Shown here: one piece after another, positions 9,275 through 56,014 of the stretch
Layout of the letters: each line of letters starts with the position of its first letter
How positions within the stretch are numbered: the first letter of the stretch is position 1
Assembly (NCBI GenBank): GCA_964016885.1
Contig: CAXHJY010001687.1
Coordinates: 1 to 64,000 of the forward strand
Source of the DNA: Eledone cirrhosa
Lineage: Eukaryota
Length of the DNA stretch: 64,000 nt
Direction of reading: 5' to 3'
The notes under the pieces: model-generated
The model's database searches: none
What the model was told of the DNA's origin: nothing
The model's input: only the letters and a program-made list of their open reading frames with translations
Translations under genes and position numbers: made by a program

Positions 9275-12200
9275 ATCATCATCATCATCATTTTACGTCC
9301 GCTTTTCCCTGCTTGAAAGGGTGGGACGGCTCTTATTCAGCACAGCATCTCTCCACTCGTCACGGTCCCTCGTCATCTCCACCGTGAGCTTCAATGATCT
9401 GAGGTCTGTTCTCACCACCTCCGCCCATGTTTTTCGTGGTCTGCCTCTACCACGTCTTCCTTCAACTGGCATTTCCTGGCACTTCTTCACCCATCGGTCA
9501 TCCTCCATGCGCATCACATGTCCATACCACCTCAGTCTCCTCTCCCGTACACTACATTCTATCCCTCTCAGACACATTCTCTCTCTCAACACATTTATGC
9601 TGGGTCGTTCACGCACATTTACACTACACATCCAACGGAGCATGCTTGCCTCATTTCTCTCCAGCCGTCGCATATCCTCTGCAGTTGCTGCCCATGTCTC
9701 ACTACCATGCAGCATCGCGCTCCTCACACAGGCATCATACAACCGGCCTTTCGTACGCAGGGAGAAACCCTTCTTCGTCAACAGAGGAAGCAGCTCCCTA
9801 AACTTCTTCCAACCCGTCCTTATTCTAGATACTATGGCCTCGGAACACCCTCCTCCCATGCTAATCTGATCTCCTAGGTACCGGAAGCTATCCACCACTT
9901 CTATAGCGCCCTCTTGCATTTGAAAAATGTGTCTATCAGTGCGACTTCTACTGTCTAATTTCCCTGTACATCTACTGCATACATATTTCTCCCTACCTGT
10001 TAGTTTGCCTGCTATCCCGCTACATCTCTTGTGTACCCAGGATCTGCATTGTGTGCATTTTATAGAATTTATGCCAGTTCCTTTTCTGCATATCGAACAT
10101 GGCCATTTCCGTGACGGAATCAGGGTTTTGTCCTCTTTTCTACTCATCAACACTTTTGTCTTAGCTAGATTCACTCTCAGTCCTCTTGCTTCCAACTGCT
10201 GTTTCCATAGCCAGAATTTATTCTCTAGCTCCTCTACTGATTCTGCTATAAGAACCAGATCGTCAGTATAGAGAAGTTCCCATGGACAGCCAGTCTTAAA
10301 CTCCTCTGTTATGGCTTGGATGACTATAATGAACAAGAGCGGGCTGAGGACCGAACCCTGATGTACTCCTACTTGTATCTGGAATTCCTCACTAAACTCC
10401 ATTCCTACCCTGACTTTACTGAGAGTACCTCTGTACAAAGTTTGCACTGTCCTCACAAGCCATTCCTCAACACCTAGCTTCCTTAGGGACCACCAGATGA
10501 CAGATCGGGGTACCCTATCAAAGGCCTTCTCTAGGTCAACAAAGGCTAAGTATAGTGGTTTATTCTTCTCTAAGAACCTCTCTTGCATTTGTCTCACCAA
10601 GAAGAGGGCATCTGTTGTACTCTTCCCAGGCACAAAACCAAACTGCATCTCATCTAGTTTGACCCTTTCTCTAATTAGTTGTGCTAAAATCCTTTCTGCC
10701 ACTTTCATAACCTGATCTATCAGTTTTATACCCCTATAATTGCTCCTCTCCAAATCATCCCCTTTACCTTTGTAGCAATTTATGAGAATACTGCTGCACC
10801 AGTCTTTGGGTATGACACCACCATATATAGCCTGGTTGATGATGCGTGCAACCAGTTTAGTGCCTACGTCCCCTGATGCCTTCAGCATCTCAGCAACTAT
10901 TCCCGATGGTCCGGCAGCCTTACCATTTTTCATTTCCCTAATCGCCTCTTAGACCCTATATTCGTCAATCTCAATAGCTGGTCCCTCTGTCGGATCTACC
11001 AAGGGTAATTTCTCTCTCTCCCATTCGTTCTCCACATTCATCAGTCTCTCATAATGACATTTCCAGGCCTCCTTTTTCTGCTCATTCGTGACACTAAGTA
11101 CACCGGCATCATCCCGGACACATTTATCTCCAACAACATCCTGATTTGCATTGACACACTGCCTTGCAATGTGGAACACCGCACGCTTCTGATCTTCCCG
11201 TCGCAGAACATTGGCAAACCTCCTACTCTCTGCCTCCCTGCGTGCTAAGTACACCTGACGTCTAGCTTCTCTCTTAGTGGCTGTATATTCTTCCCTACTC
11301 CCACCCTTTTCCCAAGCCTTCCATGCTAGTCTTTTGTCTCTAATAGCCTTATCTACTGTGCTGTTCCACCACCAGGTCACTCCCTGTCTGGTTGGAGCTC
11401 TGCTCCAGCCACAGGTTTCATCAGTAGCCTGCAGAAAGTTGTCACGTAAGAACTTCCAGTTATTATCTATGTCATACGTCTCTAAATCGTCTTCTTTTTC
11501 GTCATATACATCTTGAAGGGCTTTCCTAAATTTGTATTTTAGTGAAAGGTCTTTTAGCTTCCAGACCTTTCTTCTCCACACCTTCCTATATGTCTCATTC
11601 CATCTCTTGCTTACTGAGATATCACTAACAACTAACCTATGCTGTGGGGTACATTCTTCCCCAGGGTATGCCTTGGTATTAGACACTATCTGCCTGTCCC
11701 GCTGCCTAACTAGCAGGAAGTCAATCTGGCTTATGTGCTCACCAGATTTGTAAGTTATTAGGTGATTGGCAGGTTTCTGGAAGTTTGTGTTGCATATAGT
11801 CAATGTACTCGCATCACAAAATTCAAGAAGTCTCACTCCTTCTTCATTTCTTGAACCGTAACCGTGCCCACCATGTACCCCAGTGTAACCATCCTGGAGC
11901 TGTCCAACATGACCATTGAAGTCTCCTGCTAGCATAACGATGTCTCCGTCCTCTGTCATTGTGGTTGTTTGCAAAAGTTGCTCATAAAAGCAGTCTTTCT
12001 CATCTTTGCCTAGGCCTGCTTGGGGAGCATAGAACGAGATGATTGTCAGTAGTCTCCTACCTACAACTAATCTAAGCTTAATTATTCGATTACTAACTCG
12101 AACTACCTCTATTGTCTTATTGATCCATTTCTCAGCCAGGAAAATGCCTACTCCCCCTAACCCATCATCCTTACCTACCCAGAATAGCTTATAGCTAAGA

Positions 12201-12552
12201 CGCTTGCCTACGACTAGTCTCGCAGAGGCACCTCTGCATCTCACCTCTTGCACGCAGCACACATCCACCTGCCTTCTCTCCAGCATCTCCGCAATTTCAG
12301 CAGATCTACCTCTGAGAGTGCCAACATTAAGTGTTGCAACTCTGAGATGCGACGTCTTCATATTTTTCTATGCTGTTTTGTTGCTGTGCTGATAAGCGTT
12401 TTGGCATTGATATACTGGTTGGATGCCCTTCCTAACACCAGGGCCACTTTACAGCATGGACTGGGTGCTTTTATTTGTGCCACCAGCACTAGAGAGGATG
12501 TCTCACTAGACTCAAGGGCCCTCTCTACCCCTCCATTTTACAGCATGGTCAT
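9275..12552 (-). mobile_element. Near full-length RTE-clade LINE, subfamily C (APE endonuclease + RT + PHD finger), with one nonsense mutation
   Basis: ORF 10949-12361 is an APE endonuclease (TLNVGTL, VQEVR, GDFNGHVG, QIDF, PQHR). In-frame ORF 9293-10933 is the RT. The TAA at 10949-10951 is CAA in sister copies, and the catalytic motif reads YTDD rather than YADD. (GAT)n tail. Confidence 0.95.
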
Positions 12553-22896: not shown

Positions 22897-24929
22897 GTGG
22901 TATGTATCCCAGTACAACCTGTCTCATGGTCGGGTCGTCGGCGACTAAACTGGCAACCCCACCAAGGTTTCTTGGTGAGGAGGGTGACTTTGGACATCCT
23001 GCAGGACTAAAAATAAAACCTGTCAAAGGGCAAAGGAACTCCTGGGAGCTCTTGGAGTCAATGGCCACCCAAAACCAGCACGGCCTGCCGAAAGGCGCTG
23101 CAGTGCCTGAAAAGTCAACTTCCTGCTATTAGTATGCTGGTAAGCTAGTACAACGTATCTCCAGACGGATAGAGTGGGTCCGTAGCTTTGGTTAGCGACT
23201 ACTCTAGTGCTTGCAACACGAACAATTAGGGCGAGGGTATAAATGCCAGGTTGGTATCTGGCGCCAGGTAACCCACCACACGGAGGAGAAAGCACCTTCT
23301 TCAAGACTTAGCTGTCAAATTCTTTCACATGTGTGTAGTAGTGGCGCCCACACACATTATTAGCTATTTGAAAGGATGATGGATTTCGCAACTAATTGCA
23401 CCAGGGTTCCTGTTCCTCAGGGAACCACACTATATGGTATACCTGTTGATATAGGTCCAGCCCCTGCTTTCCCGGGTCCTGTTTCTGATCATAATGCACC
23501 TACAAAGGCATCGAATGATGATGAATCCTCAAATCTCAAGGGATGGGGTTCATCTGATGGAGAAGAAACAGGTCCTAACCAAACAACAAGCAAATCTCGC
23601 TTAGTTAGCTGTAAAAAGCAAATAATAGTTAGCTCCTTGAACACCAGAACCCTCCTTCCAACAGGTAGACTCCAGGAGCTGGCAGAGAATGCCAAACTTC
23701 AGAACATTGACATCCTTGCGGTCCAAGAACACCGCTTTTTCCACCCAAAGGATGATCTCAAGTATCACACCCTAGGATCCTACCAACTTGTCACCTCTTC
23801 AGCCACCAAGAACCCTGTCAATGCCTCCGTCGGAGGAGTCGGCTGCCTTCTCTCATCTAAAGCCAGCAATAATCTTCTGGGGATTGAAACAATCTCTCCC
23901 AGAATCTTGGTGCTTACACTAGAGGGCAATCCTAAAACCACTGCGATATGTGTATACAGTCCTCATAACGCCTCTCCTGAGGATGAGGTAAGAGAATTCT
24001 ACACGACCCTTCGCACAGTTGTTGAGCAAGTACCCTTACACAACTTTCTTATCATCGCTGGAGACCTCAATGCTCAACTTGGCCCGGATGAAGTAAAGTT
24101 TACATACAATAGGGTTACTAACCGAAACGGGGAATATCTCAAGGACTTCATGGAAGAATTCAGTCTATTCAGCTCAAACAACAGCTTCATGAAGACCAGA
24201 GGCCAGCTTTGGACCTTCGAATACCCAAACCAAAAACGAGCTCAGATTGACTATTTGATATTTCGCAAGAAATGGAGAAACTCAATCAAAGATTCTAGAT
24301 CTTATTCCTCCTTTAGCGCTGTTGGCTCAGATCATCGAGTAATCTCGGCAACAATCAAACTTAGTCTCAGGATATCCAAGAGGGCCGAATCTCTTCCCAT
24401 GAAAAGAATAGACTGAATAGCTTCACGCTTCAAGTCTATAACAGATTTCAATCTCTCTCAACTTCTGACATCAATGACGATAATATTGAGGATGTGTATA
24501 ACTGTCTTAAGCAATCAACAGAGGAACTTGCACTTGCCACCCTACCTAAAAAGAAAAGCCGAAGCCAAAAGAAACCTAGTGCCTCAGAGAAGGTAGTTGA
24601 GGCAAGGGCCCATCTTAGGTCAATATCCTAATCTCACCATCAATCACCATCTCAAGGGAAAAAGATACAGCTTATCATGGCCAAAAAATCACTAGACGAT
24701 GCTTATCTTAATGCTGAAGCCGCTATATCTCAGGTAGGATTGATCAGCTATCACATCAGCAAACACCATCATCTTGCTTGGAAAGTTGTCAAAGATCTTT
24801 CAGGCAAAAACTCAAACTCTGCAGTTAGAATCAAAGGAGGCTCTGATTTGGAAGGATGAGCATTTCCACATCCTTTTGCTCAACTTATGTAACCATACTT
24901 TCGAGACCAATAAACCACCTAGCGTCTGG
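22897..24929 (+). mobile_element. 5' half (leader + APE endonuclease) of an RTE-like LINE, inverted relative to the adjacent 3' half
   Basis: ORF 23376-24416 has SLNTRTL, AVQEHR, GDLNAQLG, QIDY and GSDHR; preceded by a ~480-nt leader. Confidence 0.88.
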
Positions 24930-25315: not shown

Positions 25316-26290
<975 letters not shown>

Positions 26291-26294
26291 TATG

Positions 26295-26659
26295 TACGTA
26301 TCAGTTTAGCGGACGCTTATTATAGCGCCCGCTTTGTTCGTTTGTAAATAAACTGAACAGCCTGTATTTATGCCGCACGGTGTTAAGGCAACCACGTCAC
26401 CTTTTTGTTCAACACTGGCACAGGAACGATGTACTAGTTTCAAGCTTGTTAGCTATCATCAGCACCGTATACCCATCTGCCAGATAGTTGAACGTTCGAA
26501 AGTATATACTTTCCTTATGAAAATTAACGGCTGAGCAGCCTAATTTGCATATCGAGTGAGTTAAATCGGTCAGGCGCAACGAAAACGATGAGTTGTAAAA
26601 AAAAATGAAAACGAAATTTCATTTCTCACTCTTAGTACGGCACTTACTTAAATGTTAAG

Positions 26660-26660
<1 letters not shown>
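26295..26660 (-). mobile_element. ~360-bp non-coding element with minimal hammerhead and octamer motif (family 3)
   Basis: Homologous blocks to 39675-39912 (tgtaaa-aaac, caggaa...ctagtttc, tcatcagca, tatgaaaat, gcag-ctaatttgcata, gtgagt); TA-flanked. Confidence 0.72.
26426..26468 (-). ncRNA. Minimal type I hammerhead ribozyme
   Basis: Minus strand: acggtg-CTGATGA-tagct aaca agctt-GAAA-CTAG-TA-catcgt. Helix I is 6 bp (1 G-U); GUA cleavage triplet; U-U at the base of helix II. Confidence 0.8.
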
Positions 26661-27212
<552 letters not shown>

Positions 27213-28960: not shown

Positions 28961-31331
28961 AACTTTGAATAACTTTGAAATGTTTTGGCCAGTATTGGCC
29001 CAGGCTATGTCTAACTTAATAGCACCACCTGGCGAAGTCTTTCAATTCAGGATTTGGGCACCATGGCCCATTCGAGAAGAGAATTACTGTTTGCGGAGAC
29101 ATATCCGGGTGTGGGTGGTTTGTCCGGGATTACTTGGAGGAATTTGTCCAAAGACTTCTTGAATTTTGTGTGGTCAGTTTCTGTTTTGACGTGTCCTGGT
29201 GTGATGTTGAAGAGAGCAGGGCCGATTGAGGTGAAATAATTGTGCCGTATTGTTGTTATGAGTTGCGATTTAGATTTTTGAATGGGACGGATAGCACGGG
29301 GCCCAAGCCTTGGGTGTATCTTGAAGGCGATGCCAACATCATTTGGGCAGTGATGATGGAACATTTTCCACATCATGCAGATAATATAACGCTCACGGCG
29401 ACGTTGGAGTGAGTAAAGTTTCAGGTTTTCTAATCGACCCCAGTAGTCAAGGTCTGACATGCCATCTATCTTTTTCGTGATTGCCCTTTGAGGAGCTTCA
29501 AGTTTCATGATACTTTGTTTCGTGTGGGGAGACCACAGTGGACAACAGTATTCAAGGTGTGGTCGGGCGAAAGTAGAGAAGAGAAGGATAATGGTGCGGG
29601 AATCTCTCGACTGGAAGGTTCTGAGGATCCAGGAACACATTCTGCGGGCCATGTCAACTTTGCTGCTTATATGCGTGGTCCAGCTTATGTTGCTGTCCAC
29701 GGTTACTCCCAAGTCTCTGATGTTGTTAGATGCCACGAGAGTTTCCCCGGAGGGAAGGGAGTACGGGAGTTTCAGAGCATCCTCTTTTCCAAAGTGGATC
29801 AGTTCGAATTTGTCTTCGTTCAGTAACATGTTGTTCTTTTCTGCCCATTGGGTAACAGCCAGTAGGTCTGACTGAAGGCTTATCCGGTCATCCACGCCAT
29901 TGATGACCTTTTGGAGCTTGGAATCATCAGCGAAAATTTTAATGTTGCTGTGTTTGATGATGTCAGTGATGTCCTTAATATAGATGATGAAGAGAAGTGG
30001 GCCCAACACAGTGCCTTGTGGGACCCCACTACTGACTTTGGCTGGGCTTGATTTGACTCCCTCAACTACAACATGTTGGGTTCTGTTTGACAGGAAGCTC
30101 TTGATCCACTGCAGCAGCTTTCCAGTGACACCAATATTGGACAGCTTTCTCAGTAGAATGTTATGATCAACCCTGTCAAAGGCCTTGCTGAAATCAAGGT
30201 AGATAACATCAGTGTTGGAACCCTCTCCCAAGGCTCTCAAAATGTCATCAAAGTGATGCAGTAGCTGCGTCAGGCAATCCCTTCCATTACGGAATCCATG
30301 CTGGTTGGAGTTCAGCATATTGTTACTCTCAAGGAAGTGGGTCATTCGCGATCTCACCACTCGCTCAAATACCTTAATGATATGAGAGGTGAGTGAGATT
30401 GGACGGTAATTCACGGCAAGGGATTTGTTTCCCTTTTTGAAAACTGGGACAACAGACTGGGATAGAAGGTTTTCTGGCACATATCCAGCATCCAGTGAGT
30501 TCCGCCACAGATTGGCAAGAGGAGATGCAAGTTGGTGTTGACACGCCTTCAAGACACAAGCAGGGAACCTATCGGGACCTACTGCTGAATTATGCTTGAT
30601 TTCCTTTATTGCCGCCAAGACATCAGGGGCGCCAAACGTTATGTCCGATAAGGTGTAATGGGGAGTAACATCGCCGATACAGCCCAGATCGGCCATATCA
30701 GGATTGCTGAAAACAGAGCAGTATTGTTTCTGCAGAATCTCACCCATAGTTTTAGCATTGTCTTGAAGAGTGCCATTTTCATCAATTAGAGGGCCAACAG
30801 TAGAGCCAGTGATTTTGTGTTTTTTTGCAAATGAAAAGAACACTTTGGGATTGAGTTTGATCTTCTCAATGGCCCAGGCCTCTTCAGCTCTTCTCTGATT
30901 GTTGATGAGGGACATTATGTTGTTTTGGAGGTTATGTTTTTTAATCTCTAGTGATGAAATGGCAGTCAAGTTGATGTGTTGCTGCTGACAGTATTTCAGC
31001 TTGTTGATTTTTTTTGTTCGTTCTCTTAATTTTTCTGATGAGCGTTTTTCTATTTCTAGGGATTCTGCTCTTAGATTTGTTTATAGTTCTTAATGGGGTG
31101 TGTTTAGCACATATGTTTGTAACAGTGTCCACAAATGTCTGCCAGGACTTTTTGATGTTAGTGGGTGTATGAGTGTGCGTGAAGGACCAGTCGACATGCA
31201 AGATCATGACTGATCGCTTCCCAGTTTGCATTGTGGAAATCCATAGCGTCAAACGGATGGACAGGAGAGATGACATTGGGTTTGTATATTGGACGGTGGA
31301 ATCTCAGATCACAGAGAACCATGTCATGATC
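28959..31331 (-). mobile_element. CR1-group LINE, 5'-truncated, with an uninterrupted 640-aa RT ORF (29047-30969)
   Basis: NYRPISLTS, YLDFSKAFD, SGVPQGTVLGPLLF, FADDSKL, RPHLEYCCPLWSP, SLQRRRER; 3' end has tandem ttcaaagtta repeats. Confidence 0.92.
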
Positions 31332-37188: not shown

Positions 37189-39361
37189 ATCATCATCATC
37201 ATCATCATCAACGTTTAACGTCCGTGTTCCACGCTTGCATGGGTTTGGACGGGGGTAGTCCCACTTGAGGCAAGAGTGGTTGTCTTGCTCGCATAGGACT
37301 GTCTGGCGGGTTTTCTACAGTTGGATGCCCTTCCTAACACCAACCACATTTACAGTGTGGGGCTGGGAGGTTTTTACCGTGTTGCCTACACGGCCACATT
37401 ACAGCGTGGACTGTCTGGCGGGTTTTCTACAGCTGGATGCCCTTCCTAACACCAACCACATTTACAGTGTGGGGCTGGGAGGTTTTTACCGTGTTGCCTA
37501 CACGGCCACATTTACAGCGTGAACTGTGTGTTTTTTTTTGTCGTGACACCTACACGATCTCATTTGTTTCGGCCTGGATGTTGTGGGACCAACATAACTG
37601 TACATTGAAAGGGGCGGTGTGGATGGGGTGGAGGTGGTGGAACGGGGGGGTGTTTTGATAGAGATGCCTACTGACTGTAGTAGGTTTTTACTTTGTATTT
37701 AGGTAAGGCGGGTCTTCTCTGTTACTGAGTACCGCCAAAGGTCTCGGTCCAGTGACATTGTCTTGGAGAAGAGTAAGTGTGTGAGGTCGGAGTTTATCAG
37801 CTCGTCCCAGGTTTTTCTCGGTCTGCCTACTCCGTGGCTACCGTCTATCTTTATTGCCCTGCAATTTGTTATACAGCTATCGACTTTCATGCGCATCACG
37901 TGTCCATACCAACGTAGCCTTCTCTCGAGTAAACAACATCTGATCCTTTTTATTTTTAATTTTTTCCTTATTTTGTTTATGCTTTGCCGTTCACGTATAT
38001 TACTGTTACACATCCAGCGGAGCATGCAAGCTTCGTTCCTCTCTAGTCTGCGTATATCCTCTGTACACAATGCCCAGGTCTCACTGCCATGCAACATTGC
38101 TGTTCGTATGCAGGCATCGTACAACCTGCCTTTCATTTTTAGGGAGAACCCTTTAGCAGCTAATAGTGGTATAAGCTCTCTGAACTTTTTCCAACCAGTT
38201 CTGACTCTAGCTACTGTACTTTCAGAGCACCCTCCCCCACTGCTGATTTTATCACCCAGATAACGGAAACTGTCCACTATTTCTATAGAACCCTCTGCGC
38301 AATTGAAAGAGCTAGTATTTTGTGGGCACTTGCTGCTACTTATTGCACCGGAGCACCGGCCACATGTAAAATCTATGTTCTTAGTTAGCTTACCTGTGAT
38401 CCCACTACATCTTTTATGCACCCATACTTTGCATTTAGGACATAAAATGGAGTTTCTACCTACGCCTTTCCTACACGACCATTTCCCAGAAGGGACCGCC
38501 GCCTTATTTTCTTTCCTATAAACTAGAACTTTTGTCTTAGCCAGGTTAATTTTAAGGCCTTTTGATTCTAGGCCGTGCTTCCATGTTTGGAATTTCTTCT
38601 CTAGCTCGGCCATTGATTCCGCTATGAGTGTCAGGTCGTCTGCGTATAGGAGTTCCTATGGGCAGCCTGTCTTGAACTCCTCTGTTATAGCCTGAAGGGC
38701 AATAATAAATAGTAGGGGGCTGAGAACAGAGCCCTGATGGACGCCAACTTTTACGCTAAACTCTTCACTATATTCGTTGTTAATTCTAACCTTGCTGACT
38801 GTTTCTTTATACATGGCTTGTATAGCCCTCACAAGCCATTCGTCAACGCCTAGTTTTCTAAGAGCCCACCAGATAATGGAGCGGGGGACTCTGTCGAAGG
38901 CTTTCTCCAAGTCGACAAAAGCTAAGTAGAGGGGTTTACCTTTAGCTAGGTACTTCTCCTGTAGTTGTCGTACAATGAAAAGAGCGTCTGTGGTACTTTT
39001 GCCTGACACAAATCCGAACTGCATTTCATCTAGATCAATTCTCTCTCTGATTAGTTGCGCTATTACTTTTTCCGTGACCTTCATGACCTGGTCGATTAAT
39101 TTAATGCCTCTATAGTTACTCCTATCTAGGGCATCTCCTTTTCCCTTATAGCAGTTAACGATGATGCTGCTACGCCAGTCCTTCGGAACAACCCCATTCT
39201 GTACGACTTGGTTAACTATGCGGGTGACCATGGTGTGTCCCACCGTGCCAGATGCCTTCAGCATCTCAGCAACTATTTCCGAAGGCCCAGCCGCCTTACC
39301 CGTCTTCATATCCTTGATTGCCTTACTTATTATACTCCCCTCGACTAACACTGCTGGTCCA
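37189..39361 (-). mobile_element. RTE subfamily B, 5'-truncated, one stop, duplicated 3' UTR module
   Basis: ORFs 38656-39351 and 37699-38613; (GAT)n tail. Confidence 0.95.
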
Positions 39362-39483
39362 TATATATATGTATATATATATATATATATATGTATATGT
39401 ATATATATATGTATATGTATATATATATATGTATATATATATGTATATATATATATGTATATATATATGTATATATATATATG

Positions 39484-39514
<31 letters not shown>

Positions 39515-39649
39515 GTATATATATATGTATATATGTATAAACAATTAAGTTAAAGTGTACATCTATATATGTATACGGAAGTATTAGTATGCATATAAAT
39601 ACACATATGTATACATATGTACATGTACCGAGTTTTTCACTAGACACTT

Positions 39650-40110
39650 TACAGTGAGTGTCCAGCTAGTCTGTATGTAAACAAACAGACGAACCGGGTT
39701 TTAAAGTCATACGAGTTTTCAAGGAAACACACTTCCTCTATTCTGCAGAGAGCCAGACAGGAATATTGGACTAGTTTCGATGTTATTACATCTCATCAGC
39801 AATATATACCTATCTTTCCGGCTTCTCTGGAGAATTGTAAAAGCACATATCGTTATATGCTTTTTCTATGAAAATCAGTAGTGGGCAGACTAATTTGCAT
39901 AGAACGTGAGTCATTCTCTCTGGAGAATAGATGAAGTGTGTTTCCTTGAAAACTCGTATGACTTTAGCTATTTCATTGTAAAAGACTGCCTGAGATTTGA
40001 ACTCATTATTATTGATTTATCACTGCTCCTTCATTGAGCTGAATTTAGCCCCATACAAACGGCTGTTATTTCTAGCAGCACGTGTATGAGACTAGCTAGA
40101 CACTGGATAA
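39650..40110 (-). mobile_element. Family 3 hammerhead/octamer element enclosed in nested inverted repeats
   Basis: 51-bp inverted repeat 39702-39752/39916-39966 and an outer ~15-bp inverted repeat (gtgtccagctagtct/agactagctagacac); homologous to 26295-26660. Confidence 0.72.
39763..39805 (-). ncRNA. Minimal type I hammerhead ribozyme, fully canonical core
   Basis: Minus strand: atattg-CTGATGA-gatgt aata acatc-GAAA-CTAG-TC-caatat. Helices I and II are perfect, G-C closes helix II, GUC cleavage triplet. Confidence 0.9.
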
Positions 40111-40181
40111 CCGCGTGAAATTACCTCGTGCGCTAAACAGTCTTTCTAAATATTTTGAAGTGGAACATACCAATTTTTATA

Positions 40182-40308
40182 GTGCTTGCTGAGGAGATCA
40201 AAATGCGGTATTTCTTCCACTTTTTCATTATTCAAAACATTTGGATTTTAAGGTTTAAACCTGTCTACGGAACAGGTTTGATTTTGTAATTTAAATTTGT
40301 CCAAGCAC
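40182..40308 (+). ncRNA. Degenerate type I hammerhead with long helix III (GAAA appears as AAAA)
   Basis: gtgcttg-CTGAGGA-g...c-AAAA-c-(long hairpin incl. aaacctgt/acaggttt)-GTC-caagcac; perfect 7-bp helix I. Confidence 0.5.
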
Positions 40309-40535
40309 CACGGCCATTGCCAACACGATTTGTTTTTGTTGATTTATTATCATAAGTCAAGATAGGCAAACTGTAATATTATTATTAGTATATTTCAATC
40401 TAGCTAACTTGGTCATTTACAATACAAACATGAATATGTTGGTATTTGTGTTTATCAAATATATTAATTTATATTAACCTGTATATATATATATATATAG
40501 ACATGTATGTATATATATATATGTATATATATAAT

Positions 40536-41789
40536 TATTTAATACAATAAGAGATAGTTTAAAGCTAAACTCTGACTGGTAACCATCTCACTCAACAAAC
40601 ATTAGGTTATATTAAAATATAAACCCAATTTAAGTGTTTGGGGTGCTAACAATATGTATAATGTGGAAAAACCAGTTGTATTATTTTATGAGATATAATT
40701 AAAGTTAAAGTATATCTCTCTTTCCAAACAATTGTTTCATTATAAGTTTTCTACAAGTTTGGGAGAATGTTTCCAGTTTATGTAGAAGCCTAATATATAT
40801 TCATGTAAGAATATATTTAGGTGGGCACTTATAAATCATCAGTGGAAGCCCATTAAACATTGATATAAGAAAACAATTTCTTACCGCTGTCAAAAATCAT
40901 GTCCGTAAAGTTGCTCTCTCTCACCTCGAATGACCGCCAAATTTGAAATTCCAGCAGTTTTTGACTGAGGAAGTATCATAGCGACACGAAGCGGGAAGGG
41001 GAGACAACCCACGATCCACGAAATGAGGAAAAAAAATAATATACACGCGGGTTAATTAGTTTTTTTGAAAACATTATCGATCCAACGTGTTTAAGAACTC
41101 AATTGAAAATAAAAAAAATAAAAAAATAAATATATGCTTGTATAAATTACACATGCATATAGATATTTTCTTAGGCTAAAACAGAGGTTGTACCCGAATA
41201 AGAATCGCTTCTCATAACCGCAGTAAATGCAGAAAGTTATGCTATAAAGGGCAAATGGGAATATAATTCTCCGGCCGAATTATTAAGAGTAAAATATAAA
41301 ACACATGCGGGTTAATTAGTTATTTCAAAACCAATATTAATTCCTCGTGTATAGAACTCAATTAATAAAAGAAAATAAATACATATATGCATGTAATTAT
41401 ATACGTAGGCATATATATATATTTTCCTAGGCTAAAAAACAGAAGTTACAACCAAAAAAAGCCACAATATTTCACAACAGTAATAAATACGGAAAGTCAA
41501 ATTCATAAGGTACCTGGAAATAAACACCTCTGGCCAATCAAGAGTAAATATTTAATACAATAACAGAGATAGTTTAAAGCTAAACGCTGACTGGTAACCA
41601 TCTCACTCAACAAACATTAGGTTATATTAAAATATAAACCCAATTTAAGTGTTTGGGGTGCTAACAATATGTATAATGTGGAAAAACCAGTTGTATTATT
41701 TTATGAGATATAATTAAAGTTAAAGTATATCTCTCTTTCCAAACAATTGTTTCATTATAAGTTTTCTACAAGTTTGGGAGAATGTTTCC
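40536..41789. repeat. ~240-bp near-identical direct repeat (40536-40774 and 41549-41789) enclosing a diverged ~255-bp tandem dimer (41040-41548)
   Basis: Direct comparison; both dimer units begin with gcgggttaattagtt. Confidence 0.88.
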
Positions 41790-52860: not shown

Positions 52861-53287
52861 TCTGTTATTGCTCTCTAGGTTAGGGTTTTGGACTCACAAT
52901 CATAAAATTGTGGATTCAGTTCCTGAACTGAGCAGTATATTGTGTTCTTGAGCAAGTTGTTTCATTTTATGTTGCTTTTCGTGATAACATGGGGCTCCTA
53001 TAATTAAAAATCACAAGAAACCTCCTATGAGATAATCCCTGTAGGAGGTCAGCTAAACCTGCATAGGTGTGAACTGTAAAACATGATGGTACTAGGATCT
53101 TTATCATTAAAATACCTTCCATGGGGTACAGCTTTGTAGGAGGCCAGCTAAACCTCCCGTAGGTGTGAGTTGTTAACTATGCATTACTTTTTATTTTGTA
53201 GTTTATAGAATTTCTTACAGAAAACCAAATTCATTAAATTAATCTCATATTTTTGTATTTTTTAGTTTCAGTCACTGGATATAAGCA

Positions 53288-54296
53288 ATGACCACTATTA
53301 CTGAAAGAAAATTTTTAAAAAATCTTAGCACACCTGCTGGGGATTTACGTTATGAAATTGAAAGATTATTGACGTTTTTTGAAAATATTCATCCAAAGTT
53401 AACATCTGTACAACTCTCTGGAAATGGTTATTATTACGATACGACAGCAGAAAAAATAATGTGCTATTTCTGTAAAACTGTAGTTAAGTTTTCAGATTCC
53501 AGTTTCAAACATGATCATTCGTGTAGATATAAAGTTGAGAGTTTTCCAGTATATGTATATGATGAAGCAGATGATGAAAATGCTGCAGCTTTTAATGCTC
53601 AGAGCACTGAGATCCAAACTGATTCTGCAATGCCAACTAATACTGAAAAAGTTATTAATTCAAATAAGAATGAAATGCTTGATATGCAAAAAAGACTGGA
53701 TACCTATAAAAATTGGAACAAAAATGTGCCAGTAACACCCACAGATCTTGCCAAGAATGGATTTTATTACTTAGGTTATGGAGATGCTGTTAAATGTGCA
53801 TACTGCTCTGTCCAATTGCGCAACTGGAAAGAAAATGATGATGTCCATAAAGAACATACACGTTTTAGTCCGAAATGTCCAAATTTAGAATCTTTTATGA
53901 AAATGGATTTGAAATACGAACTGAATCGGATAAAAAGTTTTGTCAAATGGACGACATCTTACCCATTAAAAGCTAAAGATTTGGCAGCTAATGGTTTCTA
54001 CCACAAGGGGCCTGCAGATAATGTCTGTTGTATTTTTTGCAAATGTGAAATCAATAATTGGAAAGCAGGTGATAACATTAAAGAAAAACATAGGTCAGTT
54101 TCTCCGAACTGCCCTTTCTTGTGTGAGAAATTGGTAGGTAATGTACCAATACAAGCTCGGAGTAACATTCTATTTGACCGCCCTATACATCCAAATCTTG
54201 CTTTGTTAAGTGAACGCCTTAAAACATTTTCTTTGTGGCCAAAGGATAAAAAGCAAAAACCAGAAGTTTTAGCAGAAGCTGGTTTTTTCCATAATG
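53288..54296 (+). CDS. IAP (BIRC/cIAP/DIAP2-like) first coding exon: atypical BIR, two canonical BIRs, first half of a fourth BIR
   Basis: KRLDTY...GFYY...CAYC-x16-H-x6-C; NRIKSF...CIFC-x16-H-x6-C; ERLKTF...LAEAGFF. Polypyrimidine-AG acceptor at ~53265 upstream of the ATG; phase-1 donor G|gtaggt at 54296. Confidence 0.92.
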
Positions 54297-56014
54297 GTAG
54301 GTGAACACAATTTTTATGTTTTTGTCGTTGATTAATTTTTTTTATAATATTAATTCCAATTTGCTAAATTGTATAACATGGTTTTGAATATTTTGCATAT
54401 TGTTGATAAATATACATCTTCCCCATTGACACAATAACTAAAAGATTTGAGTAGATAATCAAATCATTAACCTTATCCTTATGTCTAGTGTGTTCCTGAA
54501 AATTTAGAATTACCCTTTATTTATTTTATTCACTTACAGGAAACAAAAATATTAATCAGATTAATGAGCTACAGAACAATCGGACTTTTATTTTTATCTT
54601 TTGAGTTTATATTTACTTTGCTGCAGTTGTTGTTGCTATTATTATTTAACTTCAGCTTAGACGTGATTGAGCAGCTCTATTATCATGGGCATTCAGATTA
54701 TACTGTCCTGTTTTGTTTTTTTTTCCATTTTGAAAGACAGTAGAACATAATTTAGCTGCTGTTTCTAGCAATGTGAATGACTACAGAGGCTATACTATGT
54801 TTTTAATCTTTAGAATTGCCATCTTCTGGTGCAATTTCTGATGAATTTGTACAACACATATTTATAAACCCGTAACTCCTGATGGAATTATAGGGGTGCA
54901 TATTGACATATGGCATTTTTTAACCTGGTAGAGCACATTTCCTCTTCGGTCTGAACACAGCAGATTCCTTCCAGAGAAGGATATAAAATGAAAGAAGGAA
55001 GTTAAAATGAGATACAGAGGAAGAATCGACCCCAGTACTAGACTGGTACTTTTTTATCAACTGCAAAAGGACGAAAGGCATGGTTGACCTTGGCGGGATT
55101 TGAATTCAGAGAACAGAAAGCTGGAACAAATACTGCAAAGCATTCTATCCAACCTTCTAATGACTCTGTCAATTCACCACATTTGTACATCATACATCAA
55201 GGTAAAATTAAAAGACTGAGCAATATTTGTTACTCTTTTACCTGTTCCAACCATCCAGCTGAGGCCATGCTGGGGTACCACCCTAGAGATTAGTATAATT
55301 GATGATGATTTATTGTCAGAAATGTAATGAGAAAAGATTCATTTTGAAAAACTGTAGAAGTCTCATATCAGTTAAGAAATGTAACACAAGTCTACAACAG
55401 TTTTTTCAGAACCATCACAACAAATAACTATAACCCTATGTTAGTTGAGAACCGATTTACATTTTCTGTAAATCAGAAATCATTCCAGTCTCATACATCA
55501 TTTGCTTCAACATTTTCAAAATTATTCCACTACCATTTGTCTTTAAATCATATTGTCATCTGACTCAGTGAGTAAAAGGTCTCAAAGCAATACATTTCAT
55601 TACTTTATAACTATCTACGCATGCTAGCTTCACAGTCTATAATATTATTATCATCTTTACATTAATTTTTCCATGTTTGCATAGGTCCTCTCTAACACAG
55701 CATTCAGTCAAGTAAAGGACGTGACAACCTCTTTACTGCTGGTATCACAATAGAATGCACCCAGTACACTCTGTAAAGTGACTGCCATTAGGAAGGATGC
55801 CCAGCTGTATAAACCATCATTTTATCATCTCCTTTGTGAGGTTCAATATCCTGAAATCACATTTCATCATTTGTTGTCATGTCTTTCTTGTTTTTTTTTC
55901 TTCCCGATTTCTTATTACTTCTCTGATCAATGGGCATCATCTATTTGCATTCCATGTCTGTACTAACACAGTTTTATCTCTTGCACATCATAATCATCAT
56001 TATTTAATATCCAC

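Follow-up and report, generated by a model that had tools for sequence, protein, structure and literature searches.

The promoter of newt satellite 2 was reportedly found by Coats, Zhang and Epstein in 1994 to consist of an octamer and a PSE, the Pol III promoter of the schistosome satellite Sm-alpha has tRNA-like boxes, and the ribozyme of the trypanosomatid Pr77 is HDV-like. According to the available passages of PMC2220036, in which the original works are cited, the snRNA promoter of newt satellite 2 drives transcription by Pol II. The repeats of Eledone cirrhosa presented here resemble that satellite in design, as hammerhead repeats with a short helix III and a putative snRNA-type promoter upstream of the ribozyme. 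They differ from it in that the host is an invertebrate and that the octamer block copies the proximal element of the host Pol III genes, which is absent from the host Pol II snRNA promoters. With Sm-alpha (cited in the same passages of PMC2220036) they share an invertebrate host and, in their case as a putative feature, an internal promoter in a hammerhead repeat, but the Sm-alpha promoter is of the Pol III type, unlike the reading proposed here. Pr77 is likewise a promoter internal to retroelements, to which TBP and one subunit of SNAPc bind (PMC8190864, available in part); however, it is an unrelated 77-nt sequence of LINE-type elements and not a tandem hammerhead repeat.

In their organisation, the repeats correspond to the metazoan non-LTR retrozymes (Cervera and de la Pena 2020, PMC7229834; Li, Clavereau, Pollet, bioRxiv 10.64898/2026.07.22.740005), which in the available text of both works consist of tandemly arranged units that have no coding capacity, measure a few hundred bp and contain a type I hammerhead; they occur as monomers up to long arrays and share the genome with Penelope-like elements. 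Unlike those retrozymes, the units described here measure 466–520 bp and have a minimal hammerhead with a palindromic helix III. The accessible passages of the two works name no internal promoter for metazoan retrozymes, the promoter passages being concerned with T7. Retrozymes are reported, in the excerpts at our disposal, to be highly expressed in all tissues, which is unusual for retroelements. The pLTRs of Penelope-like elements (PMC11167929; PMC8557442, both available in part) agree with the repeats in forming partial tandems, in being truncated or inverted at the 5' end and in their AT-rich or (TA)n targets, and have a hammerhead in the repeat and an optional tail, which was traced in vitro to two internal reverse transcriptase (RT) start sites. 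In contrast to them, the repeat described here has no ORF, and its tail is ~60–70 nt long compared with their 30–40 nt. A literature search found no description of a hammerhead/Penelope repeat in octopus or of such a promoter in an invertebrate retrozyme, although supplements may bear on it. The promoter design is already known from newt satellite 2; what is new is the test matched to the host and the mixed origin of the parts.

The window, i.e., the whole stretch of 64,000 nucleotides that was analysed, carries two such repeats. The initial annotation had described hammerheads, exact octamers, a tatgaaaat block and a direct repeat, all of which were found, and had placed both elements in a single "family 3"; they belong instead to two families, A (the 26.3-kb copy) and B (the 39.7-kb copy), which are homologous, yet diverged. 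The first look at the 3.0-Gb genome gave 1996 candidates for family A and 1127 for family B, and the core common to both had 23,430 genomic matches (reversed control, 0). Among the matches listed, full-length copies of both families were mostly 97–99% alike and some arrays exceeded 30 units; the tandem period was ~466–520 bp, each unit contained a type I hammerhead, and dispersed copies were also present. No protein-like ORF of at least 120 aa was present in the repeat units, the listed ORFs being those of neighbours or TA read-through. We interpret A and B as young, related families of tandem hammerhead repeats, i.e., non-LTR retrozymes. Other hammerhead cores had 73,275 further matches genome-wide (control 456) from many families, most of the sampled ones without the octamer.

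Both window copies are monomers with one hammerhead each. The family A insertion (26172..26686, minus strand) comprises one unit and ~31 nt of the preceding unit within a (TA)n tract, while the family B copy (39538..39915, minus strand) is 5'-truncated 15 nt above its octamer and adjoins, at its 5' junction, a further 51 bp of family B sequence in inverted orientation (39916..39966, plus strand). Insertion sites of A and B copies were (TA)n tracts, and the 5' arm was often inverted; (TA)n also dominated the whole-window Rfam scan and the repeat-finder output. The small contig carrying the window may be a duplicate or an alternative haplotype, since the family B copy and its flanks (38140–41500) are nearly identical on a chromosome-scale contig (L032, G000:C5, 80.15 Mb). 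Elsewhere in the window, an open frame of 339 aa (53285–54301, plus strand) has three domains of the BIR type, as in inhibitors of apoptosis, and LINE fragments with RT or endonuclease domains lie at 9296–12367, 29050–31080 and 37702–39360 on the minus strand and at 23364–24413 on the plus strand; one RT frame among them also matches a PHD-finger.

The annotated minimal hammerheads with compensatory helix changes were recovered: helix I reads ACGGTG/CATCGT in family A and ATATTG/CAATAT in family B, and helix II changes as described. The CTGATGA motif lies at 26462 and 39799 on the minus strand, and these are the only two of five loose core matches in the window that combine the palindromic ACTAGT with a pairing helix I. 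The family A motif is a minimal type I hammerhead (26426..26468, minus strand) with the palindrome ACUAGU as helix III and a predicted cut after GUA, between 26432 and 26431; that of family B (39763..39805, minus strand) has its predicted cut after GUC, between 39769 and 39768. The Rfam model Hammerhead_HH9 matched them with 20 bits (E 0.016) and 34.9 bits (E 2e-7), respectively, both below the gathering score of 52. The extended hammerheads fold more stably than shuffled sequences (z −2.8 for A and −4.0 for B), and helix I covaries across families, with 85% of the cells pairing in 17 of the 21 representatives against 24–46% when slid. Minimal hammerheads with such a reduced helix III act as dimers (PMC6155905 and PMC7229834, in the parts available). 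The window copies, with their single hammerheads, would on this model be unable to release a monomer alone.

The exact octamer ATGCAAAT, annotated upstream of both ribozymes, is present at 26550–26543 and 39900–39893. The window contains four such octamers, two of them at the hammerheads, and the expectation by chance is ~0.001 per hammerhead (35-site window). It belongs to a longer block, TATGCAAATTAG, located at 26540..26551 in family A and 39890..39901 in family B, both on the minus strand. Searches for the block together with a hammerhead other than the A/B core returned 669 matches (control 0). From the fetched loci, 189 segments were grouped at 80% into 25 clusters with a mean identity of 0.61; these clusters, which were selected by requiring the octamer block and are related to one another, all read ATGCAAAT, with C and A at both pattern-free positions. 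The wider block TATGCAAAT(T/G)AG is kept across the 25 diverged clusters, whereas upstream columns beyond −1 are at most 72% alike. Between diverged families, the octamer is conserved much more strongly than the sequence flanking it, as the annotated promoter reading led one to expect.

Among cores not chosen on the octamer, its exact form occurs in 42 of 58 from family A and 46 of 53 from family B. It was found in 5 of 15 cores of other families (3 of 13 after subtraction of two already in the selected list), and most of those lacking it are truncated or inverted before the site. Only 3 of 67 unassigned hammerhead cores have it, or 1 of 65 without two selected ones, so the octamer marks one lineage and not all hammerhead repeats of the genome. 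Within families, the octamer varies less than the upstream flank (0.027 vs. 0.122 and 0.006 vs. 0.106), but this is weak evidence because other stretches vary as little. Contigs from four runs of unrecorded kind had no substitution at 26523–26552, a weak observation that is silent on expression. One sister family (L229, L243, L291 and L293) has extra octamer-like words upstream and a C right after the octamer.

Host genes for U1, U2, U5, U6, U6atac, RNase MRP and RNase P were fetched for comparison, and the promoter grammar was drawn from loci L118, L119, L120, L147, L148, L091–L117, L274–L282 and L309. Five host Pol III promoters have TATG(C/G)(A/T)AAT(T/G)AG at −76 to −78, three belonging to U6 loci, one to MRP and one to the best U6atac, and the TATA lies 46–48 nt beyond the block; the family A block matches this −77 element of the U6, U6atac and RNase MRP genes. 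The block is absent at −76 to −78 from 15 host U1/U2/U5 promoters. In this host, then, the octamer block appears as the proximal element of Pol III genes and not of U1/U2/U5. What the 15 U1/U2/U5 promoters have in common is YCART-NNN-TGT at −55 to −58, followed in most cases 26–28 nt later by a TATA-like word. The RNase P promoter is without the octamer and has the word TCAGT, which is Pol II-like, with a TATA 32 nt later, and its gene ends in a T run. No block was present at −77 of 14 further U6 and 5 further U6atac matches, which look like processed or displaced copies; it lies at −275 in one U6 and at −270, behind an insertion, in two U6 array copies.

Host Pol II promoters also have AATTAAA 33 nt upstream of YCART-NNN-TGT (~−57), and a TTACCTCCCTT-like distal word near −265 is shared among host snRNA promoters. 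The AATTAAA element is absent from the repeats. Likewise, the host 3' box, AAA..CAGA after U1/U2, has no counterpart seen by eye in the repeat units. In insects, both Pol II and Pol III snRNA promoters have been described as bipartite (PMC1761439, available in part). A search of the accessible literature returned no paper on the U6 snRNA promoter of cephalopods. As a by-product, the comparison defines the U6-type and U1/U2-type promoter elements of this animal. In flies, the spacing of Pol II and Pol III snRNA promoters differs by 4 bp.

Downstream of the octamer, the repeats resemble the host Pol II core YCART-NNN-TGT, with a TATA-like word 26–27 nt later. Conservation there that was not forced by the selection comprises CAGC at +17 to +20, TGT at +24 to +26, an A run and the TATA-like word at +41 to +43, counted from the octamer. 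In family A, the PSE-like stretch at +16 (TCAGCCGTTAAT, 26523..26534, minus strand) is a weak match to the host U1/U2/U5 core, the match being stronger in sister families, and TATATA at +42 (26503..26508, minus strand) follows 26 nt after its start, which is the host Pol II spacing. Host spacing would put the transcription start at 26477..26478 (minus strand), ~47 nt before the predicted cut. In family B, a poorly matching PSE-like stretch runs through CATATAA at +41 (39853..39884, minus strand).

To compare the two sets, an element profile was built over +11 to +49, the octamer excluded, from 21 representatives, after 4 of the 25 clusters had been dropped (three with an octamer-to-core distance below 85 and one judged a chance match). 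The profile was best at the implied −71 to −73 in 7 of 9 U1/U2 promoters and at the expected place in none of the five host Pol III promoters; the best match fell there in 3 of 9 held-out U5 promoters and in 5 of 210 control segments. Over the 15 U1/U2/U5 promoters, 9 lay in one 5-nt register, a number reached by none of 1000 column shuffles (best 8), while the summed z of 6.0 in this comparison leans towards the result because it is anchored on YCART. In the reverse test, +16 was the top-scoring position of the host profile in 11 of the 21 representatives. That position ranked 2 of 202 in family A (score −6.7) and 7 of 215 in family B (−12.0), compared with host leave-one-out scores of 2.2–30.3. 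The PSE match at host spacing is seen for the lineage as a whole; it is weak in both window families and, on the host side, partial in the held-out U5 promoters, and this counts against the reading, as does the absence of AATTAAA from the repeats, together with the lack of an octamer at the repeat's position in the host Pol II snRNA and RNase P promoters.

The octamer-to-ribozyme spacer, whose comparison with host snRNA promoters had been proposed, resembles them and has Pol II-type spacing. Together with the octamer conservation, this supports the annotated reading of an snRNA-type internal promoter. We consider it reasonably probable that the repeats are non-LTR retrozyme units whose snRNA-type signals just upstream of the ribozyme recruit the snRNA machinery and Pol II, so that the unit transcribes itself. 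That the repeat switches itself on is likely because these upstream signals match those before host snRNA genes. The promoter would be a composite of snRNA type, likely read by Pol II.

A plain U6-type promoter was the first idea, and it was lowered after the spacing comparison. Under that alternative, the octamer block and TATA would recruit Pol III and transcripts would end at T runs near the tail; the exact match to the host −77 block, the position of long 3' ends near T runs and the weak Pol II core in families A and B agree with it. However, the block-to-TATA distance in the repeats is 41–43 nt, ~5 nt shorter than the 46–48 nt of all five host Pol III promoters, and the spacer matches Pol II and not Pol III promoters. 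T4–T5 runs lie in the unit before the next promoter and disfavour read-through by Pol III, which is less likely on account of both the short distance and these runs. Also against it, the arrays were copied through T runs and promoter, as seen at 98 and 77 anchors, in which overlapping loci are each counted. We therefore regard transcription by Pol III as unlikely.

The octamer block could also act in RNA, as a hairpin arm recognised by a host protein or by the RT that mobilises the element, with an incidental likeness to promoters. Pairing of ATGCAAATTAG with the ATTTTCAT stretch is possible in both window families, and a local hairpin at the octamer region is folded by most family representatives. 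The annotated tatgaaaat block was located in the family A copy (26516..26524, plus strand) as an inverted near-octamer and would be the 3' arm of such a hairpin, but it is not kept in sister families. No conserved partner was found, the mean best-partner probability of octamer positions being 0.05–0.15; the octamer stays constant where the strand opposite it varies, and the same block occurs in untranscribed DNA upstream of host genes, which makes an RNA signal quite improbable. Very unlikely is a relic of the terminal repeat of an ancestral element, with copies transcribed only by read-through from neighbours, for although the 5' junctions are not enriched at the implied start and the octamer is missing from most other hammerhead families sampled (present in 1 of 65 cores collected without regard to it), a relic should decay with its flanks, yet the block is invariant across clusters only 0.61 alike, and the families are young and still spreading.

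The ends of the copies bear on how the unit is copied. The annotated 31-bp direct repeat at 26175 and 26656 is real, but its bracketing role did not hold: it is a fixed part of the unit at most of 30 other loci, on which ground it is a terminal overlap, and a target-site duplication was rejected. The window copy of family A is therefore a single unit to which the end of the unit before it is attached. The 5' copy of the overlap (26656..26686) is that previous unit's end, and the 3' copy (26175..26205) ends near the first preferred 3' end at ~26172, both on the minus strand. The 3' ends are bimodal, ~60–70 nt apart, with 30 and 34 of 66 in family A and 16 and 12 of 29 in family B. The "tail" between them (26590..26655, minus strand) may be the region where reverse transcription starts, following the model in the available part of PMC11167929. 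The 5' truncations, inverted 5' copies, tail and (TA)n targets expected of a Penelope-mobilised element are all present, and we read these scars as the marks of Penelope-type copying.

The 5' junctions are evenly spread (n = 40 for family A, n = 28 for family B) and do not cluster at the implied start (1 of 40 and 1 of 28) or at the cut site. Units differ less within an array than between arrays (medians 1 vs. 5 and 2 vs. 9.5). Even junctions and near-identical array units suggest that the template ran through promoter and ribozyme, as a circle or an uncut multimer, and would fit either. One family B array (L050, G000:C3, 77.33 Mb) alternates 470-bp units with deleted 432-bp units, which is not expected from a single monomer circle. 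No autonomous partner was found among 12 neighbouring Penelope-type ORF fragments, none of which is linked to the unit in the way an element is to its own repeat; RT frames of Penelope type and GIY-YIG-like frames do adjoin repeats (L233:846–2270, minus strand; L033, L006, L044, L214), apparently as separate insertions into the same (TA)n. Among 13 octamer-plus-TATA segments without an intact core, no foreign insertion at the implied start was found, all 13 being mutated hammerheads.

For the preferred reading of a self-transcribing unit, the following course can be proposed. The octamer block, as in host U6 and MRP genes, would bind an activator beside a SNAPc-type site, and the PSE-to-TATA spacing of 26–27 nt would select Pol II. 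Transcription would start ~72 nt after the octamer, 47 nt (A) or ~60 nt (B) before the cut, and read through tandem units to give multimers, which paired hammerheads, probably dimerising via the palindromic helix III, would cut into monomers. The released monomers may circularise, and a Penelope-type RT/endonuclease would copy the RNA into (TA)n, starting at two internal sites. Since copying would run through promoter and ribozyme, every new unit would regain its promoter.

A second tandem hammerhead family with units of 310/311 bp (L301:2470–2780 and L270; G000:C1, 5.39 Mb and 1.24 Mb) has no octamer and no BLAST homology to A or B. Its best sense-strand match to the host PSE lies 77 nt ahead of the core and is followed by TATAAG 27 nt further on; 88 of 143,120 background positions have a PSE score of at least 2 together with a TATA. 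A broader view is offered tentatively and is more doubtful than the promoter itself: one lineage may be a chimera of a host U6-type octamer block and a U1/U2-type core, the second, 310-bp lineage, with no homology detected, may have the same Pol II core with no octamer, and an internal snRNA-type promoter may be general in animal retrozymes from newts to molluscs, which would explain their high expression in all tissues.

A host-matched snRNA-type promoter in tens of thousands of units would give a specific and testable answer to the question of retrozyme expression. If true, it would add an invertebrate to the design known from the newt, and the snRNA machinery would have numerous binding sites scattered over the genome.
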